NCBI GenBank assembly: GCA_022841445.1
Contig: JALHRM010000004.1
Location: forward strand, 11,429-75,428
Origin: Candidatus Saccharimonadota bacterium
GTDB taxonomy: Bacteria; Patescibacteriota; Saccharimonadia; Saccharimonadales; UBA10212
Direction: 5' to 3'
DNA length: 64,000 nucleotides
Part shown: one piece after another, positions 2,209 to 45,560 of the stretch
Layout of the letters: each line of letters opens with the position of its first letter
Numbering within the stretch: position 1 is the first letter of the stretch
Notes under the pieces: generated by a model
Seen by the model: only the letters and a program-made list of their open reading frames with translations
Told to the model about the DNA's origin: nothing
Database searches by the model: none
Program-made: the position numbers and the translations under genes

Positions 2209-2214
2209 AGACTC

Positions 2215-2223: not shown

Positions 2224-2232
2224 AGATGATAT

Positions 2233-3006: not shown

Positions 3007-3024
3007 AAAATTAAACCGATCTAT

Positions 3025-4412: not shown

Positions 4413-7400
4413 ATGAACCCGAAAAAAAGCGGTACCAACCGACCACGCCGCTCAACCAGTAAATTTATCACTACCAAAAGCGGTAAAGAGATAAAAATTC
4501 GTCGATCGATAAGCGAAAAATTTCGTGAGCGATCTGACGAAAAGGCCCGACGAAAGGCAGAACGACTGCGAGGACTACCTAAGTCCCGGTTCAAGCGGAT
4601 ACTGTGGCGACTACACCCTAAGCGTCAATTTGCTTACTGGTTCAGTAAGGACGGCGGCATCATGGCGCTTAAACTTACCGGTCTGGGCATCGTCACCATA
4701 TTCGTCGTATTAATAGCCGTGTTTGCGTACTTCCGTAAAGACTTGCCTAATCTTAAAGACATTTCTGGCAGTAATATAGGCGGCAGTATCCGGTATTTTG
4801 ATAAAACCGGACAAGTGCTTTTGTGGGAAGATTACGGTGCTGTAAAGCGTATTCCGATAGAATCCAAAGACATTCCGCAGAATATTAAGGATGCCACCGT
4901 TGCAATTGAAGACCGAGACTTTTACAGTCACCGGGGTTTTGATACACGTGGTATTGTGCGTGCTGGATTCAACAACGTCTTTGGCACAACGGGCACCACT
5001 CAAGGCGGCTCCACAATTACTCAGCAATTAGTGCGCTTAACTCAAGAAGGTGTCGGCTACGAACAAACATACAAGCGAAAAATAAAGGAACTGGTTTTAG
5101 CGGTCGAGCTAGAGCGTACGTACAACAAAGATGTTATCCTGACCGGCTATCTCAATGTGGCGCCGTACGGGGGTATTGAGTATGGCGTAGAGGCTGCGGC
5201 ACAAAACTACTTCAACAAGTCCGCTAAGGACTTGACGCTTGACGAGGCTGCCATGCTTGCCACTATTCCAAAATCACCAACCATATATTCGCCATATAGT
5301 GAATCTGATTTTGACCGTGAGGCTTTTATTTCTAGGCAACATTACATTATCGATGTAATGGCAGAAACGGGCAAAATTACTAAAGCCCAGGCCGAAGAAG
5401 CCAAAAAGGTCGACACTGTTGCCAAAGTTAAGCCACGAACAGCAAAATACACCAACATTAAAGCTCCGTACTTCGTTCTAGCCGCCAAAGACCAATTGCT
5501 TAAAAAATATGTGCCTACCGGCGAACGCGGCTCTGCCAAAATCGGTGGATGGAAAGTCACTACGTCGCTAGACCTAACCCTGCAAGGCTACGCTGAAGAA
5601 TCAGTATCAAAAGGTATAGCGCAAGTAAAGCGCCAGCGCGGCGATACAGCAGCTTTCGTTGCCTCGGATGTCCGCACCGGTCATATTGTTGCTCTGGTTG
5701 GCGGACCGGACTTTAACGATAAGGCGCGCGCTGGCGAGGTGAATTTTGCCACACGACCACTGCCACCCGGTTCGAGCGTAAAGCCGTATGATTACGCTGC
5801 TCTTATCGAGAATACTACGACATTTGGCGCCGGGTCGGTACTTTATGACACGCAGGGGCCTTTGGAGGGCTACCCTTGTACCAATAAAGCACGACCTAAG
5901 CAGGGTGGTAATTGTCTGCATGATTATGACTTTCGGTATCCCGGCCCCGTGACGCTACGCTATGCACTTGGTGGTTCTCGAAACGTCCCAGCCGTAAAAG
6001 CGATGTTGATTGCCGGCATTGATAAAACTATCAATACTGCTGAAAAGTTAGGTCTTGCCAGTGGGTATAAATGTTATGAACCTGGCAAACCGGTCGGTGT
6101 TAAGGAGAATGAGACGCAGTGTTACTCAAGCTCAGCAATCGGTGATGGTGCCTACTTGCGCCTTGATGAGCATGTCAACGCTTTTGCCAGTTTTAGCCGC
6201 AACGGTGTTAAGCTTCCACAGACATATATACTAAAAATTGAAAACGCTAGCGGTAAAACCATAGATGAGTGGAAGCAACCACAAGGCGAGCAAGCTGTTC
6301 GACCGGAAACTGGCTACATAATTTCGGACATGATGTCCGACCCCAATGCTAGCTACTTTAGCGTCAAGCCACATCGCTATAAAAACCATAAATTCAGCTT
6401 AAAAACTGGTACCACTAATGACGCTAAGGACGGATTATTGATGGGTTATTCGACCTATTACTCCGCAGGAGTCTGGGTTGGCCATCATACTGGCAATGTA
6501 GAAATGACCGGCTTCATGGAAACAATGACTGAGCCGATTTGGAATGGTTGGATGAAAAAGGCGCACGACAGCTTACCGCCGCTCGAACGCCAAAAACCTA
6601 CAGGTGTGCAGACCTTGCCAGCATATGTTATACGCACTCATGTCGGTGTTGGATCCAGAGAACCTAGCCCAGCCACAGACCTGTACCCATCCTGGTATAA
6701 ACCAAAAACTGCTAGCAACAAAAAGCGCACCATAGACCGAGTGAGTAACAAACTTGCCACCAACTGTACACCTCCAAAAGCTAAGCAAGAGATTAATGAT
6801 GCTGCTGCAGATGCGTTCAGCGGAGATACATTTGTCGGTGCCGGTCGGAATGCTAACACCAATGAAAATGACGATGTTCATAAATGTGAAGACGCTAAAC
6901 CGAGCGTAAATCTAACTGTTCTTAACATCGGCGGCGGACAGTACCGCATTCAAGCAGTTGCCTCAGCAGGGACTCATCCGCTCAGTAGCGCCCAGTTCCC
7001 AGGCACGATAACCTTTACTATTGATGGACAAGCTATACCTAATTGTGCGAATGGCTGTTCGGCGCAAGTAGGCGGAGATGGATCAGTCTCGCTTGACTTT
7101 ACCTCTACCTTTAGCGGCAACAAAGATGTTACCGCCATTGTGTCCGACAGCGTACTTTACGAAGCAAGCAATAGTATTACTGTGAATCTTTCCACACCAG
7201 ACGATTCATCACTACAGCTTGACGTTTCTAATGCTCCAGGGCCAAACAACTACCGTTTTACGTGGTCATCATTTGCTGGTGCGTCGTCCTATGAGCTTTG
7301 TATATCGGCAAATGGCGGTGGGTTTAGCTGTACGGCGGCCGTGTCAGGTACCGACAGAACCGTACTAGGCGCAAATCGTAAGGCCTATGTAAAATCAAAT

Positions 7401-8845: not shown

Positions 8846-9817
8846 TTACCGAATTTCTTGCGGCTCAGCCCTGGTATCAATCGCATCAGTTAAGTCTCGT
8901 ATTTCCTTGGCAAGTTCATTACGCTCTATTACAAGCTGATTATACTGTGTAATTTGAGCTTGAACGCCCCGTACCAGCTGATTGTAACTGCTTACATTCG
9001 CGTTAAACCCAGGTACGGATGCATTATATTGATCGCGCTGACCGCTTGATAATAAATTTTCGAGTTCAGTTCGTGATGCTTTTAAGTCTTTAAGTTGTTC
9101 GTTGAGTAGTTTTTCTGATGACTCAATACTTGCTTTCAATGTTGCCAACTGTGTGTCATAGGCATCAACGCGGTTCTTTCGCTTCGTAAATTCAGCTTCA
9201 TATTGTTTCGACAATGCAACCACACGCGCGCGATCGGTAAAGTATTTCTGATAGTATGTTTCAAGTTCTGCCGGAAGATCCTTCACCTCAGTTGCCAGGA
9301 TAGAATGAAGTTCGTTAGGAACGATAGTTGGGTCTTTGCGACGATATTGCTCAATGGTGCTTTTGATACGTTCATCATCCAGAGCAGCAAACGCTTGTGC
9401 CGTTAGTGTGTTTACTCGTTGCCGCTCAGAGCCACTAAGCCGATCATAGCCGGCATGAAGCATTTCATGTGCGGCAGTCACTTCTTGAATTCCATCCAAA
9501 CGCACATCATTTACATCATAAATGAATATTCCGGTGTTGGTGCGATAGCAGCCAAGAACAATCGAAGCTTCACTGTCGGTGCAATGTACTCGAAAAGCCG
9601 CTAGATTGTCAACCTTTGGATGATTGACATAAAATAGCTTACGACCAAATGCATTCATTGATGTATTGGTGGCGAGATTTGCAACTTCCTGTGTGGGAAC
9701 ATACCCCCGAAGACGCCACCAGTCAAAAATGTCTTGTCGCTTGATGAGCGCAATCAGCGGTAGCGACAAAATTGCTACGACAACAAGTATCCCGACCAGT
9801 TTACGGGTGCGATGCAT
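8846..9817 (-). CDS. membrane-anchored HExxH protein with C-terminal coiled coil (putative zinc-metallopeptidase-like); function unknown
   Basis: 323-aa ORF with an N-terminal TM helix (LVGILVVVAILSLPLIALI), a globular region containing AAHEMLHAGY, and ~130 aa of heptad-like Q/E/L/K-rich sequence. The family is not recognised. Confidence 0.55.
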   Translation of the reverse strand: MHRTRKLVGILVVVAILSLPLIALIKRQDIFDWWRLRGYVPTQEVANLATNTSMNAFGRKLFYVNHPKVDNLAAFRVHCTDSEASIVLGCYRTNTGIFIYDVNDVRLDGIQEVTAAHEMLHAGYDRLSGSERQRVNTLTAQAFAALDDERIKSTIEQYRRKDPTIVPNELHSILATEVKDLPAELETYYQKYFTDRARVVALSKQYEAEFTKRKNRVDAYDTQLATLKASIESSEKLLNEQLKDLKASRTELENLLSSGQRDQYNASVPGFNANVSSYNQLVRGVQAQITQYNQLVIERNELAKEIRDLTDAIDTRAEPQEIR

Positions 9818-32188: not shown

Positions 32189-34147
32189 TTAGAGTTTCGT
32201 CTTAACCTCGGCAATCAGATCACGCAGCTCAGCTGCCTTTTCAAATTCCAAGTTGGCGGCTGCTAAATCCATCTGGGCGTTCAAGTCACGCAGCAGATGC
32301 TTGTACTCGTCTTTTGGCACCTTTCGCAAATCAAGTTTCGGCTTTTCCACTTTAGGTTCTCGCTTTATGATATCCCCGACAGCCTTACTGATTGAAGTTG
32401 GCGTGATGCCGTGTTTTTTGTTGTAGGCTTCTTGTATCGCGCGCCGGCGGTTCGTTTCTTCAATAGTACGCTGCATACTGCCAGTAACATTATTGGCATA
32501 CATAATGACATGGCCTTCCTGGTGGCGAGCTGCACGACCGACTGTTTGAATTAAGGCTTGCTCGGAACGCAAAAAACCTTCTTTGTCGGCATCAAGTATA
32601 GCCACTAAACTTACTTCTGGCAGATCAAGTCCCTCGCGAAGCAAGTTGATGCCAACTAATACATCGTAGATACCGAGCCGTAAATCACGCAAAATGTCAG
32701 TCCGATCGAGTGTATCAACATCACTATGCAAATACGCGACCTTCATGCCCAGTTCTTCCAGATATTCGCTCAAATCTTCTGACATTCGCTTTGTAAGCGT
32801 GGTGACTAATACGCGCTGCTTTTTGGACACGGTCAGGCGAATTTCAGCAATCAAATCATCAACCTGACCATCAACCGGCCGCACTTCGATAGGCGGGTCG
32901 AGTAGCCCCGTCGGACGAATTACCTGCTGGACTGGTTGTACGCTACGGCTTAATTCGTACTGGGCTGGTGTAGCACTAACATAAACAACTTTGTTAACAT
33001 GACGTTCGTATTCCGTAAAGGTTAGCGGTCGATTATCAAGTGCGCTCGGCAAACGAAATCCATGTTCTACTAAAACTTCTTTACGAGCACGGTCACCATG
33101 ATACATCCCGCGAATTTGCGGGATAGTCATGTGACTCTCATCTACAAACAATAGATAGTCATCTGGAAAATAATCCATTAATGTTGCTGGCTGTTCACCG
33201 GGCTCGCGATTTGTGAGATACCGACTGTAGTTTTCAATACCTTTCACGAAACCGGTTTGCTCCATCATTTCTAAATCAAACTTGGTGCGTTGTTCTATTC
33301 GCTGCGCTTCTATTAGTAGATTATTTGCCTTGAAATATGCCACTCGTTCATTCAATTCATTTTGTATTTTACCGAGAGCTACCTGCAGTTTCTGGTTTGG
33401 AGTAACGTAGTGGCTACCCGGGAAAATACGAACTCCCTCAAGTGTTTTTTCAATTTCTCCCGTCAGCGGATTGATTTGAGTAATGCGTTCGATTTCGTCA
33501 CCAAAGAACTCCGCCCGGTATGCAACCTCCTCACCTGCTGGAAAAATATCAACCACATCACCGCGCACCCGAAAGGTGCTTCGATGAAAATCAATATCAT
33601 TGCGTTTGTACTGAATATCAGTTAATTGCCGCAGCAGCTTATCGCGTACCCGTCGTTCGCCAGTTTTTAAATGAACAGACAGGTCATCGTAATCTTCAAC
33701 TGAACCTATGCCATAGATACAAGACACACTTGCCACAATAATGGCATCACGTCGTGACAGTAACGCGGCTGTTGCAGCGTGACGCAATCGGTCGATTTCT
33801 TCGTTAATATCACTGTCTTTTTCGATGTAGGTGTCTGATCTGGCAATGTATGCTTCGGGCTGATAATAATCAAAATAGCTAACAAAATAATGTACCGCAT
33901 TATCCGGAAAGAATAATTTGAACTCGTTATACAGTTGCGCAGCTAGCGTTTTGTTATGACTCAGCACCAACGTTGGTTTGTCTTGCTCAGCAATGATATT
34001 AGCCATCGTGAATGTCTTTCCGCTACCAGTAACACCAAGAAGTGTTTGCTCCTTAGTCCCGGCGTTCAGGCCACTATTAAGAGCCGCAATAGCTGCTGGC
34101 TGGTCTCCCATCGGTACATAATCAGCCGAAAGTCGGAATGATGTCAT
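32189..34147 (-). CDS. uvrB: excinuclease ABC subunit B
   Basis: 652 aa. Walker [13 protein letters not shown] box (VDESHMT), helicase motif VI (TVGRAARH) and a C-terminal UVR domain ([12 protein letters not shown]). Confidence 0.95.
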
Positions 34148-34174: not shown

Positions 34175-34762
34175 CTACGTGAGCGGTTGGTTCTTACTCG
34201 GATAGTAAATACTGCGATATCGCAGGTGTTCTTTATCAAGCATGGTATTGAGTCTTTTTACTAGTTTGTCAGCATCCGAATCAAATAGCACCAGTTCGTT
34301 CTTAGTTTCTCCGGCTGCTTTTAATATGTCTCTAATTTCGTCGCCTATACCGCCAGCGCCCTCTAAGAAACCTATCGGAGTCTCTGTTTCCATGGCAATG
34401 GTAAATTCGTGAAGCGTTCCAAGCCGACCGCCAATACTGACGACAGCGTCACTGGATTGGATTAGCAACGCATCTCTCCCAACATAATGAAGGCCGCTGT
34501 AAAGTATGGCGTCATAGTCTTCGGTCGGCAATCGGTATTTCATGACATGTTCTACTTTGCTGGCAGCAGGACTGATGCCAAAACTCATTTTTCCACCAGC
34601 AGCTTTATAGCCCATTGCAGCATAGTTCGGCAGTCCTATGGTGGCGCCGGTGAGCAGACTATTGCCGGCTTTGGCGATCGCCTCTCCCGCCGCAATAGCA
34701 AGATGCTTACCCTCCTGCACACTTCGACCTTTGGCTGCACCGGAAACACATATTTGATACAT
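34175..34762 (-). CDS. LOG/TIGR00725-like Rossmann-fold protein (possible nucleotide phosphoribohydrolase)
   Basis: 195 aa. N-terminal ICVSGAAKG glycine-rich start, TGATIGLP, and IGGRLGTLHEF, which resembles the LOG-family GGxGT..E motif. From memory it resembles TIGR00725. Confidence 0.6.
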   Translation of the reverse strand: MYQICVSGAAKGRSVQEGKHLAIAAGEAIAKAGNSLLTGATIGLPNYAAMGYKAAGGKMSFGISPAASKVEHVMKYRLPTEDYDAILYSGLHYVGRDALLIQSSDAVVSIGGRLGTLHEFTIAMETETPIGFLEGAGGIGDEIRDILKAAGETKNELVLFDSDADKLVKRLNTMLDKEHLRYRSIYYPSKNQPLT

Positions 34763-34766
34763 AACT

Positions 34767-36020
34767 CTACGCCTTTTTCTTTCTATTCTCAGGACGGATT
34801 TTCTTGGTGCGTGTTTCGCTTATGGCTTTAGTCTGAGGCCGCGACTCTATCTTGTCAAGCTGCTTAAAAACATGTCGCTGCAGAATTGGTCGAGCAGCAT
34901 AGAGCGACATAATTTCCCGATTGACATAGGCCCTGAGCACCACCATACTACGCGTTTCATAATGCCGGTTTTGTAGCATATCAATACCTATGTCACCGAT
35001 ATGCAGTGATACTCCATCGTCATCATGCACCGATCCTATTCCTAATTTTTCTGCCCAAAAACCAAGACCAGGTGCCAGCGCGTGGAGTATTCGCTGCGGC
35101 GATAGAAGATCCATGTCACCATGATCTAGCACCACGTCAAATAGACGCCTCGCATCATCACCATAGTTATGACGTAGACTTTGCGATATTGCACTCCAGT
35201 CAATCGGCACACCAGCAATGATAATCTGATGATGCTTAGGTGCCACGAATTCTTGAACCATCCAACCCGGATACTGTCGAACATGATGCGCCTTGAAAAG
35301 CAGGCTGGCATCCTTTATGTGACGATATGCACCCAAAGTTTGCGATAATAACGTAAAGGCATATCCTTCTTTCAAAGTTTCTTCACTGGACAATACTATG
35401 ATTGCCCCGGCCTCTGGTACCGCTACAATGGGCAGAACGATTTCTTTTGGAAAATGTGACATATAAAATACTACCTTTATCGGACGAGCTTCAAAATCAC
35501 CCGCCTGAAGGTGATGATAATACTGACGAAGTTTTGTGTTCCATTGATCGCTTTCCAGTTTGTGGGCTAAAGCAAGCACCACGTCAACCTGTTCATTTTT
35601 TAGCAGCGAAGCAACTGATCGATAGCGAAGAAATTTCATTGTTTCGAATGGTGACTGTTCGGCAAGTACCTTTTTTAAAACACTCCGCTTTACGCTCCAA
35701 ATTATTTCGCTAGCCACGGCTTTTTGAAAATTACTGGCTACAGCTTTAAGTAACTGGTCAGCATCACCCTTGTAAGCAGACAACAGAACCTTTTCGTCGG
35801 CGGCAGCGCGTACTCGTAGTGCTTGATATAACTCTTTGGCGGTTGTATCGAGCGGGTCAAGTCCGAGCTCTTTTGATGCCTGAGCCGCGACTTGCTTTAA
35901 TTGACTGATATATCCAACATCAATGCTCAGCTCGCCAGTAGCTTGTTCTAGACGCTTAAAACGGAGTGCTGTCTTGGATTCGGCCTCGTTCAGTATGGTC
36001 GATAAAAAACTCATCAACAT
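34767..36020 (-). CDS. hypothetical protein (417 aa), family not recognised
   Basis: Long uninterrupted ORF packed 3-4 nt from both neighbours. It has no motif I recognise and a basic C-terminal tail (RPQTKAISETRTKKIRPENRKKKA). Confidence 0.6.
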   Translation of the reverse strand: MLMSFLSTILNEAESKTALRFKRLEQATGELSIDVGYISQLKQVAAQASKELGLDPLDTTAKELYQALRVRAAADEKVLLSAYKGDADQLLKAVASNFQKAVASEIIWSVKRSVLKKVLAEQSPFETMKFLRYRSVASLLKNEQVDVVLALAHKLESDQWNTKLRQYYHHLQAGDFEARPIKVVFYMSHFPKEIVLPIVAVPEAGAIIVLSSEETLKEGYAFTLLSQTLGAYRHIKDASLLFKAHHVRQYPGWMVQEFVAPKHHQIIIAGVPIDWSAISQSLRHNYGDDARRLFDVVLDHGDMDLLSPQRILHALAPGLGFWAEKLGIGSVHDDDGVSLHIGDIGIDMLQNRHYETRSMVVLRAYVNREIMSLYAARPILQRHVFKQLDKIESRPQTKAISETRTKKIRPENRKKKA

Positions 36021-36023
36021 GTC

Positions 36024-37040
36024 TTAGTTAAGTCGGGTCGGGTGATACCATTCCGGAGCTGATTGCAAAAGTCGTTCTATATCGGTGCTACTCAATAGTC
36101 CGCCTTGCGCACCGACATGTTGCACTACATTCATTGAATTTATTGGCGCCCAAAGCAGTGCCGCTTCGAGCGTAGCACCTTTAATGAGAGCCGCAACTAA
36201 GGTTGATGCGAAACTGTCGCCAGCACCAGTTCGTTCCACGGGTGGACCAGGATCTGGATAGTTTGGCATTTTGAACCGATTGTCACCATCACTGGCGTAA
36301 GCTCCGTCAGGTCCGTCGGTGATGATAACAATTCGTGGTCCATGCGAGTGAATCCTATTGAACAAATCATGTAGATCATCATAGTTTCCACCAGTAATCT
36401 GTACCGCTTCTTCGCGGTTGACGATGAATACTTCAGTCCGCTTGTAGAGCCGCTGCAGGCGCTCAATACCTGCCTCCAGTTGATATGTGCCAGGTTGCAG
36501 CGCGAGCTTAACGCTTGGGTTCTCATCCAACCAATCGGCCACAAAATCGTGGTAATGATCCAGGGCGTTTTTGCTGATAGAGCTAAAATATACCCATTTT
36601 GGAATATCGTTATCTCGGAAGCGCGGCCAATGGTAGTCGTACTCTTCGTGTTTTATAAGGATAGTTCGCTCATCCTTATACCACAATACATAGTGATAAT
36701 TGCTTACTTTGCCGCGGTTGACGTGTACGAACCTGGTGTCAACACCTTTGTCCTTTAAAGACTTAATAATATCCAGCCCCCAGTTGTCTTCGCCGACATT
36801 GCTGACCAATCCGGACTGTAGGCCTAATTTTTCAAATGCTACGGCCGCGTTTGCCGCGTTGCCAACACCTTCCAACACAATCGAATCAGCAAATGGCAAT
36901 TTTGTTCCAAAAGGGATAGCCAGCCATTTCCCATGTTCATTTTCATAGGTATGCTCACGCTCTTCAAAAAGCTTAATAAATGCGTCTGTGACTACATCGC
37001 CGATAGCCAACACATCAAGATGACCGCTGAATTGTGCCAT
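36024..37040 (-). CDS. PfkB-family carbohydrate/nucleoside kinase
   Basis: 338 aa. Ribokinase-fold signatures include the C-terminal TGAGDSFASTLVAAL anion-hole/catalytic Asp motif. AAGGTGGG SD upstream. Substrate cannot be inferred. Confidence 0.8.
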   Translation of the reverse strand: MAQFSGHLDVLAIGDVVTDAFIKLFEEREHTYENEHGKWLAIPFGTKLPFADSIVLEGVGNAANAAVAFEKLGLQSGLVSNVGEDNWGLDIIKSLKDKGVDTRFVHVNRGKVSNYHYVLWYKDERTILIKHEEYDYHWPRFRDNDIPKWVYFSSISKNALDHYHDFVADWLDENPSVKLALQPGTYQLEAGIERLQRLYKRTEVFIVNREEAVQITGGNYDDLHDLFNRIHSHGPRIVIITDGPDGAYASDGDNRFKMPNYPDPGPPVERTGAGDSFASTLVAALIKGATLEAALLWAPINSMNVVQHVGAQGGLLSSTDIERLLQSAPEWYHPTRLN

Positions 37041-37083
37041 GTCCCACCTTTTTTATTTGATTATGCTTATTGTAGCAGTTTGA

Positions 37084-38001
37084 CTACAAGCCCACAACGG
37101 CTTTGCCGGAACTGTTAAATGTATCGAGTTTTGCCTCTACGACAGCCTGCACGGAATCAATGACATCATCCATAAGTTTTACGACGGCATACTCAGTTTT
37201 ATTTTCAGCCAGCACCTTCTCAAGCGTATCCCTATACGCACGGCGCATATCACTGTTAATATTTATCTTCGTCACGCCAATCTTAACAGCCTCGACAAAG
37301 TAGTGTCCGGGCGTACCGCTCCCACCGTGTAAGCTGATGTTGCAGCCGATAGATTCTCTTATTCGGGCGAGCAGCTCAAGGTCTAGTACTTTCGGCACAG
37401 GGTAACTGCCATGCAGATTACCAACTGCAGCTGCAAATGTATCTATCCCGGTGGCCTCGACAAAAGCCTTCGCGCCCTCTGGTGTGCTAAAGGTTTTCTT
37501 TATCTCATCATAGTCAATGGCTTCGGTGTGCACATTACTACTACCGCCAAAATAATGCGGCTCGCTTTCAACCAACGCGCCAGTTAGCTTGGCATACTCA
37601 ACAATTTCCTTGGTATGAGCGATGATGTCTTCTTCCGTGGCTTTATGATCAGCCTGGGAAATATCAATATGTATAAATTCATACCCAGCCTCGATTCCAG
37701 CTTTGGCGGCCTCAACCGAAGGACTATGGTCAAGATTAATGTACATTTCGATACCATATTCTTGCTTGTAGTTTTCGACCATATCGCGCACATTATCGAG
37801 CCCCATAGCTTCGACTTCACCCTGGCTTACCTCAACCATAAGCGGTGCGTTTTTGGCTTTAGCGGCGCGTGCGACCGCAATCAACGTTTCCTGGTTATCT
37901 AGGTTAAAAGCACCGAGGGCGTAATGGCCAGTCCGCGCCCGTTCAATAGACTCTCTAGCTTTTTTACAATTTGTGCGTATTTGTTCTAGTGTTAATGGCA
38001 T
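37084..38001 (-). CDS. fba: class II fructose-bisphosphate aldolase
   Basis: 305 aa. Class II aldolase blocks YALGAFN, NLDHS, LHGGSGT and KININSD. Confidence 0.9.
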   Translation of the reverse strand: MPLTLEQIRTNCKKARESIERARTGHYALGAFNLDNQETLIAVARAAKAKNAPLMVEVSQGEVEAMGLDNVRDMVENYKQEYGIEMYINLDHSPSVEAAKAGIEAGYEFIHIDISQADHKATEEDIIAHTKEIVEYAKLTGALVESEPHYFGGSSNVHTEAIDYDEIKKTFSTPEGAKAFVEATGIDTFAAAVGNLHGSYPVPKVLDLELLARIRESIGCNISLHGGSGTPGHYFVEAVKIGVTKININSDMRRAYRDTLEKVLAENKTEYAVVKLMDDVIDSVQAVVEAKLDTFNSSGKAVVGL

Positions 38002-38009
38002 CTTTCCAC

Positions 38010-38996
38010 CTATTTATGATTTGTTTCTAGCATATGTACAGCTGCAAGGCGTATGTTCTTGGCGGTGAGACCAAAATGTTCTAGTAGTTCGGCTGGCTGG
38101 CCCGATTCTCCAAAACGATCTTTTATACCCATCCTGAGTAACGGAGTTGGCGCATGTTCACCGAGCAGTTCAGCGACGGCACTTCCCAATCCACCATTAA
38201 TTTGTGCTTCTTCAATAGTGATAACATGTTTCGTCTTACGCACACTATGTAGCAACGTTACACCGTCAAGTGGCTTAATTGTGGGAACATGGACGACTTC
38301 GGCATCAATGCCGTCCTTGAACAGCATTTCAGCAGCCATGAGGGCCTGGTAGGTCATCGTTCCAGTAGCAACAAGTGTTATGTCATCGCCTTTCGCGAAT
38401 ACGTAGGCTTTGCCTATTTCAAACGGCGTGTGCGTTGTCGTTACAATCGGTGAGCTGTCACGGGCAACCCGTAGATAATTCGCCTGGGGGTGGTTGGCCA
38501 TAGCAAGCGTCGCTTTTTCGGCCTCGACGCTATCGCACGGCACGATTACAGCCATGTTCGGCAGTGCTCGCATAAGTGCTATGTCTTCCAGCATCTGATG
38601 TGTTGCGCCGTCTGGCCCGGTATATAGCCCGGCATGACTGCCAATAACTTTTACAGGCCGCTGGTTAATACAGGCTGTGGTCTTGATCTGTTCCCAGTTA
38701 CGCCCAGGACTAAACGCCGCGTAGCTACTAATGAATGGAATCTTTCCCATAGCAGCCAGCCCGGCACCAACTGTCGCTAGGTTCTGCTCGGCAATGCCGA
38801 CTTCGATGAATCGTTCCGGAAATTCCTTGGCAAATAAATGGATCTGCGTAGACTCGGTCAGGTCGGCGCATAGTGCTACGACATTTGAATTACGCTTTCC
38901 TGCTTCGAGCAACCCTCGCCCAAAGCCTTTACGGATCGGCTCTGAAGTAACATCTTTTTTATATAAATCTTCAGCTAAATGCATACTAGAACTCAT
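38010..38996 (-). CDS. transketolase, C-terminal (pyrimidine-binding) subunit
   Basis: 328 aa. FIEVGIAEQN and HAGLYTGPDGATHQ blocks plus the transketolase C-terminal domain. 4-nt overlap with the N-terminal subunit gene. Confidence 0.9.
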   Translation of the reverse strand: MSSSMHLAEDLYKKDVTSEPIRKGFGRGLLEAGKRNSNVVALCADLTESTQIHLFAKEFPERFIEVGIAEQNLATVGAGLAAMGKIPFISSYAAFSPGRNWEQIKTTACINQRPVKVIGSHAGLYTGPDGATHQMLEDIALMRALPNMAVIVPCDSVEAEKATLAMANHPQANYLRVARDSSPIVTTTHTPFEIGKAYVFAKGDDITLVATGTMTYQALMAAEMLFKDGIDAEVVHVPTIKPLDGVTLLHSVRKTKHVITIEEAQINGGLGSAVAELLGEHAPTPLLRMGIKDRFGESGQPAELLEHFGLTAKNIRLAAVHMLETNHK

Positions 38997-39880
38997 TCGT
39001 GATCTCCAGTAATTTTGCCCTTGAGACTTCGTAGTTCACGCAGTGCTACCGCTGCCTGGTCATGCTTAGGTGGCGCGCCAGCGACATCGGCAATCCCGAC
39101 AGCAATACCATGCCAATGATAGTCATATTCCATGTAATCAACGCCCTTGCCAGGTATTGTGTGGGCAATAATAACAACTGGTTTTTCGACAATCGCCCGC
39201 GCCATAGCACAAGCATCAATGAACGCCTCAATGTTATGTCCATCAATCTCGATGACGTGCCATCCAAATGATTCCCATTTGCCCTTCAAGTCTTCTAACG
39301 GCATAACGTACTCGGTCGTACCGTCTATTTGAATGTTGTTACGATCAACAATACCGATGACATTGCTAAGCTTGTACTTGGCCACCAGCATGGCTGATTC
39401 CCAAATATTGCCTTCGTTCAGCTCGCCATCGCCCATCATGCAGTATATCCAGCGGTGAGACTGCTGATCCATCTTCATGGCCAGCGCCATACCGGCAGCT
39501 TGACCAAGCCCCTCACCGAGCGGCCCGCTGGTAGTTTCTAGACCAGGAAGGCTCGTTCGTTCAGGGTGCCCTTGTAAACGGCTACCAAAACGGCGAAGCG
39601 TCATCAGTTCTTTTTTATCAAAATAACCGGCATGCGCCATAACCGCATAAAGCACCGGCGCACAGTGACCGTTGCTCATAATAAACAAATCACGCTCATC
39701 CCAATCCGGTTTTTTGGGATCATGCTTTAAGACATCGAAGTAAAGCGCCGTCATCATGTCGGCCAGATCAAGTGGCCCAGCACTATGCCCGTTACCGGCG
39801 TGTTCCAGCATCTTTATGATGTCAATACGAACATCGTAGGCTTTTTTCTCTAGCTCTTTTATGCTCATTTTTTTCACCAT
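38993..39880 (-). CDS. transketolase, N-terminal (thiamine-diphosphate-binding) subunit
   Basis: 295 aa. GHSAGPL, SNGHCAPVLYAV and the TPP motif GDGELNEGNIWE. Confidence 0.9.
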   Translation of the reverse strand: MVKKMSIKELEKKAYDVRIDIIKMLEHAGNGHSAGPLDLADMMTALYFDVLKHDPKKPDWDERDLFIMSNGHCAPVLYAVMAHAGYFDKKELMTLRRFGSRLQGHPERTSLPGLETTSGPLGEGLGQAAGMALAMKMDQQSHRWIYCMMGDGELNEGNIWESAMLVAKYKLSNVIGIVDRNNIQIDGTTEYVMPLEDLKGKWESFGWHVIEIDGHNIEAFIDACAMARAIVEKPVVIIAHTIPGKGVDYMEYDYHWHGIAVGIADVAGAPPKHDQAAVALRELRSLKGKITGDHE

Positions 39881-39890
39881 TACGCTAATG

Positions 39891-39896
39891 ATTATA
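39891..39896 (-). promoter_or_regulatory. consensus -10 TATAAT 10 nt upstream of the transketolase N-subunit ATG (internal promoter of the sugar-phosphate cluster)
   Basis: The minus strand reads TATAAT-cattagcgta-ATG(39880). Confidence 0.4.
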
Positions 39897-39924
39897 CCTG
39901 TTTGTTATCGTTTTCACAGCAACT

Positions 39925-40560
39925 TCAAGAAAGCGCCAAAAGTTGATGGAGGGTCTCATAAGCAGTCGATGGACTCTCGGCGTTATGAATATATCCACCA
40001 ACATTCACGACATCAACACCACCGTCAACAAGTTTTTTTATGTTTTTATCATTTACGCCACCATCCCACCCTATTTCTATTGATGGTTTTTTTTCTTTAA
40101 GGACGGCCGCTTTTTTTATAAGTTTCATGTCGGCTTTACTGCCACCCTGATACCCCAAATTGCCGCTAAAAACGAGGACGTGGTCTATGAATCCGAGTGC
40201 TCCAAAAATGGCGTCGGCGGGTGTTGCGGGTAGAAGCGCTACACCGACTTTCACTCCCTGTTGTTTGCAGGAGGTGACTATTGAGCGAAAGTCACCATCC
40301 GATTCAGCATGGATGATGATCATGTGCGGCAGGTGAGCAAGAACATCATTTAAGATTGTTTCTGGGACCTGATACATGATGTGGATGTCGGCTTTTACGC
40401 CAGCTGGCCACCACATACTTTCAGGAGAATTCGACGTAGTGGGCGCAAACCGACCGTCCATTAGGTCGATATGCACCCGATGCCCAAAATGCCCAACCAA
40501 CTCCATTTGTTGATCAAAATTGTTGTCGATTGCAGTAACGGTTGGGCAAATATCAGCCAT
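39925..40560 (-). CDS. rpe: ribulose-phosphate 3-epimerase
   Basis: 211 aa TIM-barrel with the HIDLMDGRFAP block and IIHAES and GWDGGVN segments typical of Rpe. Confidence 0.85.
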   Translation of the reverse strand: MADICPTVTAIDNNFDQQMELVGHFGHRVHIDLMDGRFAPTTSNSPESMWWPAGVKADIHIMYQVPETILNDVLAHLPHMIIIHAESDGDFRSIVTSCKQQGVKVGVALLPATPADAIFGALGFIDHVLVFSGNLGYQGGSKADMKLIKKAAVLKEKKPSIEIGWDGGVNDKNIKKLVDGGVDVVNVGGYIHNAESPSTAYETLHQLLALS

Positions 40561-41053
40561 TGTTACCAGTATCTATTTTTTGTATTCGCCGAACGTGACG
40601 CTCTTCACCACTGAACGGTGTTTTGAGCCAGAGCAGCACGGCCTGCTCTAATGATTCCTGATTAACAAAACGAGCGCCGAAACTTATCATATTAGCGTCA
40701 TTATGCTGCCGGCTCAGTCGAAGAATTTCAAAAAAATCAGTCGCTTGAGTGCCACCTGTATCCAGTGGAGCGACAGCATGAGCCGGCCCGTAGTATACCG
40801 CGCAGCGCACCCCGCGCACTCGGTTCGCCACCATTGCTTCGCCCTGACCACTCCCGCCCATAATAATCCCTCGCTCGCATTCACCACTCGCGACGGCTTC
40901 AGCAGCCGGTCGTATGAAATCCGGGTAGTCATCATCACTGTTCATTTCAGTAGGCGCAAATGACTTGCATCGATAGCCATTTAATTCTAAAAACTCAGCT
41001 AGCTTTCTTACTGCATCAAAGCCGGCATGATCGGTACTAAGTGCTACGGTCAT
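40553..41053 (-). CDS. rpiB: ribose-5-phosphate isomerase B
   Basis: 166 aa in the RpiB/LacA family: STDHAGF, GIIMGGSGQGEAMVANR, RLSRQHNDANM. Confidence 0.9.
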   Translation of the reverse strand: MTVALSTDHAGFDAVRKLAEFLELNGYRCKSFAPTEMNSDDDYPDFIRPAAEAVASGECERGIIMGGSGQGEAMVANRVRGVRCAVYYGPAHAVAPLDTGGTQATDFFEILRLSRQHNDANMISFGARFVNQESLEQAVLLWLKTPFSGEERHVRRIQKIDTGNNG

Positions 41054-41060
41054 AGCTATG

Positions 41061-42089
41061 TTACTTTCCTTTTACTGATTTACCGAGCAATGTCCCAGCA
41101 TCAGCCACTACTTCAACCAGTCTATTGCTGTAGCCCCACTCGTTGTCATACCACGCTACCACTTTGAGCATATTGTCACCCACTACATTGGTAAGTTTTA
41201 GATCAACTGTGGCCGAGTGACTGTTGCCGATAAAGTCACTGCTTACTAATTCTTCTTCTGTTACGTCAACTATTCCTTGATAGTAAGCCTCTTTTGCAGC
41301 TTTTTTGAATACCTCATTCACCGCTTCAACGGTTACCGGTTTTTTGGTGATGATAACGAAATCGCTAAGACTTACCACTGGGGTTGGTACGCGGATACTC
41401 AGACCACCGAAAATACCCTTTAAGGCAGGCAGCGCTTCTCCGGCGGCAATACTGGCGCCGGTAGTAGTCGGCACAATATTGGTGGCAGCATTTCTCGCTT
41501 CACGCAAGTCCTTAGCCGGTGCATCTTGTAGGCGCTGACTGGCAGTATAGCTATGGATGGTTGTCATCATAGCTTTCTCAATGCCAAAATGCTGCTCAAT
41601 GATGGCGGCTACTGGCGTAATACAGTTGGTTGTGCAGCTCGCGTTACTGATAACATCACTACCACCATCAAGCGCGTCTTCGTTGACGCCCAGCACGATT
41701 GTGGTTGCCCCTTCGCCCTTCGCTGGCGCCGAGATAACAACCCGCTTCGCACCCGCATCTATATGTGCTCGGGCTTTTGCTGGGTCCACAAAAAAGCCAG
41801 TTGATTCAATAACAACATCAATATCATGCTGCTTCCAGGGAAGAGCTGCCGGATCTTTCTCCGCAAATATTCGTATCTTATGCCCATCAACAATGACATG
41901 TTGGTCGTCATAATTTACTTCGTGCCCGTATGTTCCGTAACTGCTGTCATGCTTCAGTAAATGCGCCAGTGTACGAGTGTCGGTCAAGTCATTTACCGCT
42001 ACAATTTCCATATCACTCCGCTCAAACGCAACTTTAAAAGCATTGCGCCCAATTCTGCCAAATCCATTGATAGCTACCCTGGTCTTCAC
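41061..42089 (-). CDS. gap: type I glyceraldehyde-3-phosphate dehydrogenase
   Basis: INGFGRIGR NAD-binding motif and catalytic SNASCTTNC. GTG 42089 gives the canonical N-terminus (M)KTRVAINGFGRIGR and follows AAGGGGGA. The ORF track starts 7 codons earlier at GTG 42110. Confidence 0.93.
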   Translation of the reverse strand: MKTRVAINGFGRIGRNAFKVAFERSDMEIVAVNDLTDTRTLAHLLKHDSSYGTYGHEVNYDDQHVIVDGHKIRIFAEKDPAALPWKQHDIDVVIESTGFFVDPAKARAHIDAGAKRVVISAPAKGEGATTIVLGVNEDALDGGSDVISNASCTTNCITPVAAIIEQHFGIEKAMMTTIHSYTASQRLQDAPAKDLREARNAATNIVPTTTGASIAAGEALPALKGIFGGLSIRVPTPVVSLSDFVIITKKPVTVEAVNEVFKKAAKEAYYQGIVDVTEEELVSSDFIGNSHSATVDLKLTNVVGDNMLKVVAWYDNEWGYSNRLVEVVADAGTLLGKSVKGK

Positions 42090-42189
42090 ATTTCCCCCTT
42101 GTTTTGTCACATCAAAAGCACTTGTGGTTAATTCATATTGTACGAAGAGCTGGGGCTATCCGCAACTCCCATTTTTGCCCGGAGCTAGC

Positions 42190-42195
42190 TATACT
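42190..42195 (+). promoter_or_regulatory. -10 TATACT abutting rel ATG 42196 and 6 nt upstream of ATG 42202
   Basis: TATACT-ATGTTC-ATG. If this box is used, the leaderless start would be 42202. Confidence 0.35.
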
Positions 42196-43671
42196 ATGTT
42201 CATGAAAGCTCGACAACTTATTGATCTTGCAGCCGAGCACTATGCTGAGCGCGATGTGGAGCGCATTAAACAAGCCGTGCAGTTCAGTACAAAAGCCCAC
42301 GAAGGTCAGATGCGTGCCAGTGGTGATCCCTACATACAACACTGCTTCAAAGTCGCCGAAACGCTTATTGATTGGCGTTTGGACAGCAACTCAGTGATTG
42401 CCGGACTTCTTCATGATAGTGTCGAAGATAGTGGCGTAAGCTTACTGAGCTTAGAGGAGCTGTTTGGCAAAGACGTTGCCTTTTTAGTCGACGGGGTTAC
42501 AAAGGTCGGTGTAGCACGAGCAGGCATGGCCGACATCAGTACATACTTGCCGCAAACACGCGACAACTTAAGCAAATTACTGGTGGCTGTTAGCCATGAT
42601 TTGCGCGTTCTGCTTATTAAACTAGCTGACCGTTTGCATAATCTACAAACCTTGCAGTACTTGTCACCCGCTAAACAACGTAAGATTGCCCGCGAATCGC
42701 TTGAAGTTTTTGCTCCGCTCGCTGACCGCCTGGGTATCGGTCGCCTGCGTCTTCAGATAGAAGAACTTGCTTATGCTTACGTTGACCCAGCAGAGTATTC
42801 TAGGTTAAAAAAACTGATCAAAAAACGGCTCGGCAAGTCACACCGCAAGCTGGCCAAGACCCGTCAAGAAGTCGAGAAAACCCTCACCGACACCGGCATT
42901 CCCCATACTATGGACGGCCGTATCAAAAGTGTTTACAGCCTTCACAAAAAACTACGTAAGGTAAACGGCGACATCGAACGTGTTTATGATCTTATTGCTC
43001 TTCGCATTATCGTAGAAAACAAAAATCAATGTTACCAGGTGCTTGGCATCCTTCATGGTCTGTATCAGCCGATGCTCACCAAGATCAAAGATTACATCGC
43101 TGCACCAAAACCAAATGGCTACCAGAGCCTGCATACGACCGTACTCACCCCAGAAGAACAGATTGTCGAATTTCAAATCCGTACTCAAACTATGCACGAA
43201 CGAGCTGAGCGTGGTTTAGCAGCCAGCTTTTATTACAATGAACAAAAAGTAACCAACAATTACGTTGACCGGAGTGCTTCGGAATTACCTCGCAATTTAC
43301 AGTGGATCACCAAGTTGCAGATGCTGACCGACCGACTGCAGAGCGGGGAGCGCTTAAAAGGTGGTGAACTCGCTGTTGATCTGTTTGCGGACCGTATTTT
43401 CGTCTATAGCCCAAAGGGCGATATTTTCGACCTGCCAGAAGGCAGCTACCCGCTCGATTTTGCCTTTGCTGTTCATTCCGACATCGCCGTACATGCGTTC
43501 GCAGTTCGCATCAACGGAAAAATTGCACCATTCAATCGAAAATTACAGAACGGCGACATCATTCAAGTGGAAACAAAACGGACTTCCAACCCTAAATCTG
43601 ACTGGCTCAACTGGGCAAAAACAGCACGGGCGCGTCAAAAAATCCGTCAATTCCTGGCTAAACAGCCCTAA
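42196..43671 (+). CDS. rel: bifunctional (p)ppGpp synthetase/hydrolase Rel, short form (HD + synthetase + TGS only)
   Basis: HD hydrolase motif (LLHDSVEDSG). RelA/SpoT synthetase blocks (YDLIALRIIV, GYQSLHTTV, EFQIRTQTMHERAE). The TGS domain (GDIFDLPEGSYPLDFAFAVHSDI...GDIIQVET) ends the protein. The ORF-track N-terminus (41977) is antisense read-through of gap. The start is ATG 42196 or 42202. Confidence 0.88.
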   Translation: MFMKARQLIDLAAEHYAERDVERIKQAVQFSTKAHEGQMRASGDPYIQHCFKVAETLIDWRLDSNSVIAGLLHDSVEDSGVSLLSLEELFGKDVAFLVDGVTKVGVARAGMADISTYLPQTRDNLSKLLVAVSHDLRVLLIKLADRLHNLQTLQYLSPAKQRKIARESLEVFAPLADRLGIGRLRLQIEELAYAYVDPAEYSRLKKLIKKRLGKSHRKLAKTRQEVEKTLTDTGIPHTMDGRIKSVYSLHKKLRKVNGDIERVYDLIALRIIVENKNQCYQVLGILHGLYQPMLTKIKDYIAAPKPNGYQSLHTTVLTPEEQIVEFQIRTQTMHERAERGLAASFYYNEQKVTNNYVDRSASELPRNLQWITKLQMLTDRLQSGERLKGGELAVDLFADRIFVYSPKGDIFDLPEGSYPLDFAFAVHSDIAVHAFAVRINGKIAPFNRKLQNGDIIQVETKRTSNPKSDWLNWAKTARARQKIRQFLAKQP

Positions 43672-44280: not shown

Positions 44281-44877
44281 ATGAAATCATTTGTATCTTT
44301 GTTTAAACCGACGGCAGTGGTTGCCGACGTTACTGGCATATCAGTTGAATGGCTCCGAGATTGTGGCGTTACATCAGTCGGCTTTGATCTCGACCGCACC
44401 ATAATTGGTCACTCTGAGGAAAAAATCCCAACTCAGTTTCTGGATCATCTACGTACTCTGCAACAGGCGTCGTTTACAATCATTATCATAAGTAATGTAC
44501 ATACCAAGCAGCGCCGAGCAAGGTTTGATAAGATAATTCGCGAAGTACTCGCTCGCGGTATTTCGGGGGTAATCGCTGTAACACCTGAAGATGTTGGCGG
44601 CAAAGCAAAACCATCAAGTGCACCATTTGAACTAGCTGCTGAGCGAAGTAATACCAGCCCGTCGGCCATGGCATATGTGGGGGACCAGCTCCTAAAAGAC
44701 GTATACGGCGCTGCAAAGGCAGGTTACACAACAACAGTACTGGTGCGACCATATGGCAAGAATGATAATTTGGCCGTGCGTTACTTGCAACGTCCCACGA
44801 TAGATTTATTTTTCAGACTCTATCACCGCCTGCCAATCCGAAAAAATGCCTACCCCAGACGGATCAAGACGTTATGA
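44281..44877 (+). CDS. HAD-superfamily phosphatase (YqeG-like, subfamily IIIA)
   Basis: 198 aa. Motif I FDLDRTI, motif II IISN, and motif III/IV K...GDQLLKDV. Confidence 0.75.
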   Translation: MKSFVSLFKPTAVVADVTGISVEWLRDCGVTSVGFDLDRTIIGHSEEKIPTQFLDHLRTLQQASFTIIIISNVHTKQRRARFDKIIREVLARGISGVIAVTPEDVGGKAKPSSAPFELAAERSNTSPSAMAYVGDQLLKDVYGAAKAGYTTTVLVRPYGKNDNLAVRYLQRPTIDLFFRLYHRLPIRKNAYPRRIKTL

Positions 44878-45560
44878 AAATTGTACTTTGGAATGTACTG
44901 CGTGATGCTTCGGTGAATGATATTTTTACAGGCATTGAGCGTATCGAAAGGGAGCATAATGGCATAGATCTACTATGCCTATGCGAAGTAACTGATGAAC
45001 TATTAGAACTCCTAAAGACGAATGGCTTTAAAACTTTTTTTCAACCCCGAGGTGACACTAGCGGTGGACTACTTGTAGCTGCTCGAGCAAGCTTACCTAC
45101 CATCAAAGCCATCCAGCTCTCTAAAAAGCGTTACCGTTACGGGCTTCACACTTCCGAGGTACTGCTTGCAAATATCAGTGCTGCCGAACCTTTTACACTG
45201 GCATTTACGCATCTAACATACAATCGCCCGAGTCGTTGGATTCAGCGCGCGCGCGAGCAGAAAATGTTACTCTCAGCACTGCCGCGCACAAATTGCGTGC
45301 TTATTGGTGATTTGAATACTTACCCGATTGAATTGCCCATTCCGTCTATTATTTCAAAACTGAAGCGAATTGGCTTTATGCCTTTGGTAAAGGGGCCTAC
45401 GTGGCACAGTCTTGCTAAACGACCGATTGGTTTTGCCCATATGCAGCTTGATCATGTCCTAGGAACTAAAGACGTGCAGCGCAAAATGAACGCTCAGATT
45501 TTGGATTTTCACTTGCCTTCAGATCATAGTCCAATTGTAGTTACCGTAGTTGCTTCATAG
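44874..45560 (+). CDS. endonuclease/exonuclease/phosphatase (EEP) family protein
   Basis: 228 aa. N-terminal LWNV, CLCEV, GDLN and C-terminal SDHSPIVV catalytic blocks. ATGA overlap with the HAD gene. Confidence 0.75.
   Translation: MKIVLWNVLRDASVNDIFTGIERIEREHNGIDLLCLCEVTDELLELLKTNGFKTFFQPRGDTSGGLLVAARASLPTIKAIQLSKKRYRYGLHTSEVLLANISAAEPFTLAFTHLTYNRPSRWIQRAREQKMLLSALPRTNCVLIGDLNTYPIELPIPSIISKLKRIGFMPLVKGPTWHSLAKRPIGFAHMQLDHVLGTKDVQRKMNAQILDFHLPSDHSPIVVTVVAS

Follow-up and report, generated by a model that had tools for sequence, protein, structure and literature searches.

Nine co-directional minus-strand open reading frames (ORFs) span positions 34175-42110 of a stretch of 64,000 nucleotides from a Candidatus Saccharimonadota bacterium (contig JALHRM010000004.1; henceforth the window). 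From gap onwards they encode glyceraldehyde-3-phosphate dehydrogenase (GAPDH), ribose-5-phosphate isomerase B (RpiB), ribulose-phosphate 3-epimerase (Rpe), the two halves of a transketolase (TktN and TktC), a class II aldolase (Fba), a PfkB-family kinase, a 417-aa protein from a family without annotation (415 aa in the NCBI gene call, which begins at M3; henceforth the 415-aa protein) and a 195-aa protein with the SLOG fold. We found that the junction between the last two genes is the only one in the cluster that is never interrupted in the related loci compared, and that a canonical type-II LOG gene takes the place of the SLOG gene in some loci, once as a fusion with the 415-aa protein. We tentatively propose, with a confidence that falls somewhat short of even, that the cluster combines a sugar-phosphate set built on a 1-kinase for fructose 6-phosphate (F6P) and sedoheptulose 7-phosphate (S7P) with a separate nucleotide-handling module formed by the 415-aa and SLOG proteins.

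According to this proposal, the seven genes from gap to pfkB would be a transaldolase-free sugar-phosphate set that is inherited together with the last two genes. The kinase would phosphorylate the C1 hydroxyl of ketose phosphates, converting F6P into fructose 1,6-bisphosphate (FBP) and, probably, S7P into sedoheptulose 1,7-bisphosphate (SBP), and the adjacent aldolase would cleave both products. Kinase and aldolase would thereby supply the phosphofructokinase reported to be missing from these bacteria and bypass transaldolase, linking pentose phosphates to trioses and hexoses and giving every gene from gap to pfkB a role. The 415-aa and SLOG proteins, the one evolving fast and the other highly conserved, would act as a separate, translationally coupled module that binds, and probably hydrolyses, a substrate of the nucleoside-5'-phosphate type to yield a base and ribose 5-phosphate, with the 415-aa protein as a partner subunit for regulation or specificity. 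This ribose 5-phosphate would then enter the sugar-phosphate set, while the kinase would play no part in the release step. All of these substrates, and the direction of flux, are what we infer from the evidence below.

The cluster is compact, with successive intergenic distances from gap to the SLOG gene of 7, -8, 44, -4, 8, 43, 3 and 4 nt; rpiB and rpe overlap by 8 nt, and tktN and tktC by 4 nt. A first-pass annotation of this DNA, made from the letters and ORF translations, had counted ten genes where its own list named nine, but its range of gaps (-8 to +44 nt) and its spacing of the last three genes (3-4 nt apart) both match ours. Thirty-six window ORFs of at least 150 aa were scanned against the profile libraries (the nine cluster genes and 27 others), 14 further ORFs being left unscanned.

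Gene order across Saccharimonadales and an unbroken gene pair

Loci for comparison were collected with the SLOG protein as probe, and the best 80 of 186 stretches from species-representative genomes were used, a sample that the choice of probe biases towards genomes bearing SLOG cluster 4 (SLOG4) proteins. All 80 are Saccharibacteria, bar a few evidently mis-binned metagenome-assembled genomes (MAGs). Gene order was compared by tblastn with the window proteins on 84 loci, comprising these 80 and four from metagenomes, and the order ppa-gap-rpiB-rpe-tktN-tktC-fba-pfkB-unknown-SLOG-uvrB-gatC, in which "unknown" stands for the 415-aa gene, is kept in 84/84 Saccharimonadales loci. The arrangement is far beyond chance, and the conservation of the neighbourhood, which the first-pass annotation proposed to test, is there. 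However, uvrB and gatC are kept in the same order too, so adjacency alone reflects lineage-wide collinearity and is no proof of functional coupling. The gene-order argument of the first-pass annotation is weakened accordingly, although the order itself is conserved, and uvrB, syntenic and functionally unrelated, serves as the control for inherited collinearity.

Junctions differ in how often they are interrupted, which we scored as more than 150 nt of inserted DNA. Within the sugar-phosphate genes, interruptions were counted at gap/rpiB (11/58), rpiB/rpe (8/60), rpe/tktN (13/60), tktN/tktC (26/67), tktC/fba (19/68) and fba/pfkB (21/75), and the junction of pfkB with the 415-aa gene is broken in 9 of 76 loci. 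Outside the cluster, SLOG/uvrB is broken in 42/77 and uvrB/gatC in 55/67. The junction between the 415-aa and SLOG genes is the sole one never broken (0/73, with a largest gap of 124 nt), and the stop codon of the former is directly next to, or at most a few nt from, the start codon of the latter, in the window as in distant relatives. Thus, the first-pass grouping of kinase, 415-aa and SLOG genes stands as far as the last genes are conserved together, but the three do not form a universal unit, since the kinase can be parted from the pair and Southlakia (see below) has no 415-aa gene at the locus. The two members of the pair evolve at different rates: median identity to the window is 27% for the 415-aa protein, whereas the SLOG protein has 70% and most neighbours have 62-78%, with rpiB (31%) and rpe (45%) as exceptions.

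The DNA inserted at junctions carries unrelated accessory genes encoding pilin-like, membrane and secreted proteins. At the SLOG/uvrB junction, 44 ORFs (from a family of 46 related ORFs) encode a small protein whose N-terminus resembles that of type IV pilins, one example lying in locus L008 between 10561 and 12404; the window lacks it.

The SLOG-fold protein, its partner and type-II LOG replacements

The 195-aa protein (34175-34762, minus strand) belongs to Pfam SLOG cluster 4, scoring 92.1 bits on PF18306 against a gathering threshold of 26.3. A homology search gave 3,427 matches, and the best 120 listed are 69-100% identical and, where named, come from Saccharimonadales or Saccharibacteria. 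By contrast, the protein stays under the cutoff of TIGR00725 (60.9 bits vs 106.9) and under those of the LOG family, namely PF03641 (17.7 vs a gathering threshold of 27), TIGR00730 (28.9 vs 96.35) and NF058542 (22.4 vs 300). Searches of the Protein Data Bank (PDB), with the single sequence and with a profile, placed 1rcu (TM1055) and the molybdenum cofactor (Moco) carrier or binding proteins 6y01 and 2iz5 at the top, with LOG enzymes marginal. An AlphaFold model (pLDDT 86.5) gave the same ranking with Foldseek, the target-normalised TM-scores being 0.80-0.85 for 6y01, 1rcu and 2iz5, about 0.7 for LOGs and about 0.56 for DprA. The SLOG protein is therefore not a LOG family member and lies in the TM1055/Moco-carrier branch. 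No Moco-related gene was found among the 36 scanned window ORFs.

LOG proteins are defined by the motif PGGxGTxxE together with a catalytic Arg155/Glu178 pair, and Moco carriers are excluded from the family for want of the Arg (Seo & Kim, PMC5379747). In the SLOG protein, the string IGGRLGTLHEF does occur at residues 110-120, as the first-pass annotation had pointed out, so that the motif reads G111-G-R-L-G-T-L-H-E119, with Pro replaced by Gly and GTxxE kept. When the SLOG4 profile was aligned by hhalign with the type-II LOGs that occupy the same slot (below), HYVGRD fell on HFFxRK and GGRLGTLHE on GGxGTLDE without indels, at a probability of 88%. R96 and E119 thereby align, at the level of the alignment only, with Arg155 and Glu178 of CgLOGII, and both are invariant in 41 homologues. 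Judging by these residues, catalysis by the SLOG protein is conceivable, possibly on a ligand other than adenine-type nucleoside monophosphates (NMPs).

The strongest evidence that SLOG4 has a LOG-like job alongside the 415-aa protein comes from loci in which no SLOG4 gene was found (L085, L002-L004, L088 and L089). In L085, the 415-aa protein is fused to a type-II LOG in P0275 (658 aa; L085:10001-11977), which scores 113 bits on PF03641 and holds the exact CgLOGII active-site strings FFGRK and PGGFGTLDE. P0275 is a single continuous gene on an 808-kb MAG contig, at the customary position ahead of uvrB. The type-II LOG gene is a separate one in L002-L004, where it comes after the 415-aa gene on the same strand, and in L088 and L089, where it lies 4 nt downstream on the opposite strand, in convergent orientation. 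No type-II LOG was found in the window or in the other loci examined. In a neighbour-joining (NJ) tree of UvrB, TktC and FBA, L085 and L088 are sisters beside the SLOG4-bearing L086, and L002-4 stand far from them among SLOG4-bearing lineages; on this tree, a canonical LOG has therefore taken over from SLOG4 next to the 415-aa gene at least two times. From these in situ replacements, and from the alignment of the SLOG Arg and Glu with the LOG catalytic pair, we infer the nucleotide chemistry of the module. They also make the LOG-type release of ribose 5-phosphate suggested by the first-pass annotation plausible, since the residues align and a type-II LOG occupies the slot in at least two lineages, although its description of the gene as LOG-like holds for these features and not for the LOG family thresholds.

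The 415-aa protein (34767-36020, minus strand) found no annotated match by sequence, profile or fold. A word-indexed search returned nine relatives, and an exhaustive profile search 910 representative clusters, of which 489 lay at E<=1e-30 and almost all were 400-420 aa long. Conservation within this family includes many acidic positions and the invariant residues W275, W322, D343 and Y374. Pfam, NCBIfam and PADLOC gave no match, and a Pfam scan of 90 family members at E<=1 returned scattered noise only. The domains that flank the LOG core of PpnN likewise found no counterpart, as there was no Pfam match in the 417-aa protein or in the non-LOG part of P0275. The AF2 model is confident (pLDDT 80.6, pTM 0.81), and a fold search with it found no neighbour in the PDB or in BFVD (lowest E-values 0.95 and 0.27, respectively). 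Weak, scattered zincin-like fold matches (lethal factor, SprT, IrrE) were discarded, since a conserved HExxH is lacking in the family and their E-values were near 1, and the single match of a PDB profile search, to a de novo protein, was judged spurious. In P0258 (582 aa; L090:2378-4126), a partial N-terminal duplicate precedes a full-length copy of the family; residues 1-145 of P0258 are 32% identical to residues 1-138 of P0275, which suggests that the helical N-terminal part of the 415-aa protein is an independent domain.

Two further readings of the SLOG protein were rejected. A DprA-like link to uvrB is disfavoured by the weaker fold match of DprA and by the frequent interruption of the SLOG/uvrB junction, and a role in defence by the lack of a PADLOC match for the 415-aa protein, the SLOG protein and the kinase and by the fixed position of the 415-aa/SLOG pair in all 80 representative loci. 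Southlakia encodes a second SLOG cluster 4/TIGR00725 protein, SEML1_0423, which adjoins a phosphoribosyltransferase-domain protein (SEML1_0423/0424; PMC10633639, Table S2), a further tie of the SLOG4 family to phosphoribosyl chemistry.

The sugar-phosphate genes and their PfkB kinase

Saccharibacteria and most Patescibacteria are reported to lack phosphofructokinase and transaldolase (PMC6031116, PMC7304191, PMC12361377), and transaldolase is reported absent in nearly all Saccharibacteria. Without these enzymes, S7P has no outlet and the aldolase has no source of substrate. In line with the first-pass annotation, the nine cluster genes include no transaldolase, pgi, tpi or pgk, and none of these, nor pfkA, is among the 36 scanned window ORFs of at least 150 aa (14 others unscanned).

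Pfam and NCBIfam confirmed every gene identity that had been named for the cluster. The gap gene (41061-42110, like all those that follow on the minus strand) scores 416.6 bits on TIGR01534 (cutoff 367.2) and also matches PF00044 and PF02800. It is followed by rpiB (40553-41053, 166 aa), with 130.9 bits on PF02502 and 115.8 on TIGR00689 (cutoff 88.3), and by a divergent rpe (39925-40560, 211 aa), with 94 bits on PF00834 and 99.5 on TIGR01163, under the equivalog cutoff. Transketolase is split into an N-terminal, thiamine diphosphate (ThDP)-binding half (tktN, 38993-39880, 295 aa; PF00456, 199 bits) and a C-terminal half (tktC, 38010-38996, 328 aa; PF02779 and PF02780), which cover positions 11-268 and 317-625 of NF004559, respectively. 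The class II ketose-bisphosphate (fructose-1,6-bisphosphate) aldolase gene fba (37084-38001, 305 aa) scores 215 bits on PF01116 and 207 on TIGR01859, again under the equivalog cutoff. RpiB identity to the window falls into two classes in L005-L084, about 25-34% and about 51-63%, which suggests two RpiB types exchanged in one position. A gene resembling inositol monophosphatase (IMPase) and fructose bisphosphatase (FBPase) lies near the cluster in five loci; it is within the cluster in L001 only (5321-6124, between tktN and tktC) and just upstream of gap in L003 (514-1095), L012, L013 and L058, and the window has none.

The kinase gene (36024-37040, 338 aa) encodes a member of the PfkB/ribokinase superfamily (PF00294, 124.6 bits) with 7,911 homologues, the best 120 listed being 70-97% identical and, where named, from Saccharimonadales or Saccharibacteria. 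It carries an NxxE motif (N208-R-E-E211) and a TGAGD motif with the catalytic Asp (R270-T-G-A-G-D275). Two kinase types share the slot, type A (EGVGNAAN) in the window and type B (TGGGATN) in L086, L088 and L090; the two are 28-29% identical, both motifs are invariant or nearly so across them, and L037 (6625-8591) and L052 (6763-8714) have both in tandem. The kinase reaches no NCBIfam equivalog cutoff. It falls short as a ribokinase (TIGR02152, 87.4 bits vs 299.65; PRK11142, 60 vs 341), as a PfkB-type phosphofructokinase (TIGR03168, 44.2 vs 216.4; TIGR03828, 42.1 vs 292) and as a nucleoside kinase (NF041164, 42.6 vs 450, with adenosine kinases at about 28-34 bits in the PDB profile search), and it scores 80 bits as iolC and 62 as ribose-1-phosphate kinase. 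In the PDB searches, Pfk-2 (3cqd) did not come up for type A at E<=1e-5 and scored 47.5 bits for type B. With Pfk-2 and 1-phosphofructokinase (1-PFK) scores below cutoff, what we propose is therefore a phosphofructokinase-like function and not Pfk-2 orthology. In the HMMER alignment with the Vibrio cholerae ribokinase 4x8f, N61 stands opposite the Lys of the GGKGAN stretch, a residue that contacts ribose in the structure of Escherichia coli RbsK. Among solved structures, E. coli YdjH scores best for both types (profile search, 74 bits for type A and 128 for type B); YdjH is a PfkB kinase that is paired with the class II aldolase YdjI and acts on long 2-ketoses (PMC9602453).

The position of the kinase goes with the aldolase. 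The order in L085 is tktC-pfkB-fba followed by the fusion of the 415-aa protein and LOG, and in L037 a class I FBP aldolase (NF033379, 414 bits; 5588-6625) fills the class II slot between tktC and the kinases. For TM7x_02415, a "ribokinase" adjoining fba in Nanosynbacter lyticus TM7x, a PfkB-type phosphofructokinase function has been predicted, and transcript levels go up with glucose (PMC12815258).

Transposon sequencing (Tn-seq) of Southlakia epibionticum, in which the same array is SEML1_0546-0556 (PMC10633639, Tables S1 and S2), bears on these genes. There, the PF18306 protein is encoded 9 nt after the kinase and no 415-aa gene is present at the locus (PMC10633639). In the same source, which scores genes as non-essential (NE) or with a growth defect (GD), the kinase is NE/NE/GD (normalised reads 815, 344 and 46), fba NE/GD/GD (782, 124 and 19), rpe GD/GD/GD (295, 75 and 10) and rpiB NE/GD/GD (118, 31 and 3.7). 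The tktN and tktC genes are NE with a 3-5-fold drop, gap is NE, and the SLOG gene is NE with reads rising from 2084 to 3498 and 3748 (PMC10633639). Sharing its growth defect with fba, rpe and rpiB, the kinase thus goes with the sugar-phosphate genes, in contrast to the SLOG gene. The paralogue SEML1_0423 might compensate and so mask a phenotype of the SLOG gene.

Competing explanations, flanking genes and known systems

Several findings weigh against our proposal of an F6P/S7P kinase set with a nucleotide-handling module. No hydrolase activity is known for the TM1055/Moco-carrier branch, a grouping that also goes against the first-pass annotation's LOG-type hydrolase. In the SLOG protein, an invariant Arg113 takes the place of the second Gly of PGG, and Asp97 and His118 stand where LOG has Lys156 and Asp177, which contact adenine. 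The P0275 fusion is known from one MAG contig, and the NJ tree behind the repeated replacements is a simple one without support values. The kinase scores higher on ribokinase models (87 bits) than on Pfk-2/1-PFK (44 bits), none of them at cutoff, and one of the two PfkB types could be a ribokinase. Insertions in the transketolase and GAPDH genes of Southlakia are scored as non-essential, a result at odds with both a purely glycolytic and a purely pentose-to-hexose role; with the SLOG gene dispensable and no 415-aa gene there, the importance of the sugar-phosphate genes therefore does not depend on the pair.

The pair may instead have nothing to do with sugar metabolism, its place being a matter of frozen gene order, with the SLOG protein as a ligand carrier or sensor, in the manner of Moco carriers or of the SLOG domains that act as sensors in signalling systems, and the 415-aa protein as its effector or client. 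Synteny that reaches functionally unrelated genes (uvrB, gatCAB), closest folds among Moco-binding proteins and TM1055 in place of LOG enzymes, a SLOG gene that is dispensable in Southlakia where the sugar genes are not, and a 415-aa protein whose median identity is unusually low for a core metabolic enzyme, marking fast change, would all fit. We still judge it somewhat unlikely: every environmental Saccharimonadales locus examined has the pair at one fixed site and no second copy within the flank of up to 10 kb per side, a distribution that does not resemble the patchy occurrence of defence or signalling cassettes and is accompanied by no PADLOC match; replacement by a catalytically complete type-II LOG, including the fusion, points to enzyme-like nucleotide chemistry; and Moco-related genes are missing among the scanned ORFs.

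Two other explanations concern the kinase. It could be a ribokinase or a ribose-1-phosphate kinase feeding in nucleoside-derived ribose, the aldolase then serving only gluconeogenesis or imported FBP. Its best partial NCBIfam scores are indeed for ribokinase (type A 87, type B 115 bits) and ribose-1-phosphate kinase (62 and 98), many sources name the protein "ribokinase", and its gene stands beside rpiB, rpe and tkt. Yet all these scores are far under equivalog cutoffs of about 300 bits, N61 is aligned with the GGKGAN Lys, the ketose kinase YdjH, and not RbsK, is its nearest relative of solved structure, the gene's position co-varies with the aldolase, and without transaldolase such a pathway would presumably stall at S7P, so that we regard this explanation as improbable. 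Very unlikely, in our view, is the route put forward in the first-pass annotation, whose interpretation is overall partly supported: that the PfkB protein is a nucleoside kinase making NMPs, which the LOG-like protein cleaves to a base and ribose 5-phosphate. The 3-4 nt spacing of the kinase, 415-aa and SLOG genes, the rarer interruption of the pfkB/415-aa junction than of fba/pfkB (9/76 vs 21/75), the SLOG gene directly after the kinase in Southlakia, the existence of PfkB-fold nucleoside kinases (MJ0406 is among the PDB matches) and the aligned LOG catalytic residues speak for it. However, the nucleoside-kinase model is missed by a wide margin and adenosine kinases are among the weakest PDB matches; the kinase lies between tktC and fba in L085, away from the fusion of the 415-aa protein and LOG; and Tn-seq separates the kinase, with its growth defect, from the neutral SLOG gene. 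Spending ATP on an NMP that is then hydrolysed would also be wasteful where nucleoside hydrolases or phosphorylases would do, and would leave S7P without an outlet and fba without a role. As these explanations and our proposal address different components, our confidences in them need not sum to one.

On the same strand beyond the SLOG gene lie uvrB (32189-34147, minus strand) after 27 nt, then gatC, gatA and gatB; the positional homologues of uvrB in L001-L004 have UvrB Pfam domains. At the other end, a RelA/SpoT-family gene (42196-43671, plus strand) with the domains HD_4, RelA_SpoT and TGS (PF13328, PF04607, PF02824) diverges from gap. Its longest ORF (41977-43671, plus strand), which begins with a GTG and shares 134 nt with gap, is probably too long, the likely start being an ATG at 42196 or 42202. 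L007, L085 and Southlakia (SEML1_0554) have the gene in this divergent position too. Because (p)ppGpp activates the LOG-type nucleotidase PpnN of E. coli, a regulatory link between the RelA/SpoT protein and the SLOG module is conceivable. Beyond the pyrophosphatase gene follow a HAD-superfamily phosphatase (PGP_phosphatase/HAD_2; 44281-44877, plus strand) and an endonuclease/exonuclease/phosphatase-family protein (44874-45560, plus strand), either of which could be a candidate sugar-bisphosphate phosphatase for a pentose-to-hexose route. A 323-aa ORF (8846-9817, minus strand) flanked by KaiC/RadA-like ATPase and ClpB-like genes has no Pfam match at E<=1e-5. The remaining scanned window ORFs are housekeeping genes (recG, tyrS, PBP, clpB-like, nusA, dnaE, pheST and others). 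Promoter and terminator scans performed no better than on shuffled sequence, and an Rfam scan gave no match.

The sugar-phosphate cluster and the idea of a PfkB-type phosphofructokinase are already in the literature, and SLOG cluster 4 is catalogued there but uncharacterised. We found no description of the orphan 415-aa family and its unbroken pairing with SLOG4, of the repeated replacement of SLOG4 by type-II LOG including the fusion, or of an S7P/SBP bypass for Saccharibacteria. Papers invoke a "pentose phosphate shunt" for these bacteria that is unworkable without phosphofructokinase or transaldolase; a PfkB kinase acting on F6P and S7P, paired with the aldolase, would, if real, close both gaps with genes already in the cluster. 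An orphan family of about 900 representative clusters that is inseparable from a SLOG/LOG protein, with one natural fusion, points to an unstudied nucleotide-handling function in organisms that must live on scavenged nucleotides. A fuller version, in which the 415-aa protein and SLOG4 (or a type-II LOG) make up a hitherto unrecognised two-component nucleotide phosphoribohydrolase and, with the F6P/S7P kinase and FBP/SBP aldolase, complete a route from scavenged nucleotide to triose and hexose phosphates, is compatible with the evidence, and we rate it as improbable. If neither idea holds, this is an ordinary, strongly syntenic central-metabolism cluster.

Among known systems, the closest in chemistry to the proposed kinase-aldolase step is the SBP bypass of transaldolase, in which phosphofructokinase phosphorylates S7P and FBP aldolase cleaves the SBP; it reportedly operates in cellulolytic clostridia, Entamoeba and E. 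coli tal mutants. Like the cluster, it combines Rpi, Rpe, Tkt, an FBP-type aldolase and a sugar-phosphate kinase, none of the 36 scanned window ORFs being a transaldolase, and we count the adjacency of kinase and aldolase in the cluster as a further likeness. It differs in using PfkA-family enzymes, dependent on pyrophosphate (PPi) or ATP, whereas the candidate here is an unclassified PfkB protein known from its sequence. YdjH and YdjI likewise pair a PfkB kinase with a PF01116-family aldolase, but their reported substrates are long-chain ketoses with a carboxylate end (PMC9602453) and not sugar phosphates, and the similarity to YdjH is modest (74 and 128 bits). TM7x_02415 resembles the window kinase in its genomic position, as a PfkB kinase in a saccharibacterial fba operon; its assignment, reached by the same line of reasoning, is likewise a prediction, and the account of it leaves out S7P and the missing transaldolase (PMC12815258).

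For the module, the LOG family of cytokinin riboside/nucleoside 5'-monophosphate phosphoribohydrolases, including CgLOGII and PpnN/YgdH, shares with the SLOG protein the SLOG Rossmann-like fold, the aligned Arg96 and Glu119 and the conserved GTxxE, and PpnN, in which a LOG core is joined to extra domains, recalls P0275 and the pairing with the 415-aa protein. Unlike LOG enzymes, the SLOG protein misses the family thresholds, has GGR in place of PGG and Asp and His in place of the base-contacting Lys and Asp, and has non-LOG proteins as its nearest structures. Its best match by sequence, profile and fold is the group of TM1055 (1rcu)/TIGR00725 and the Moco carriers (2iz5, 6y01). In contrast to Moco carriers, which lack the LOG catalytic Arg (PMC5379747), the SLOG protein of the window has an Arg aligned with it.

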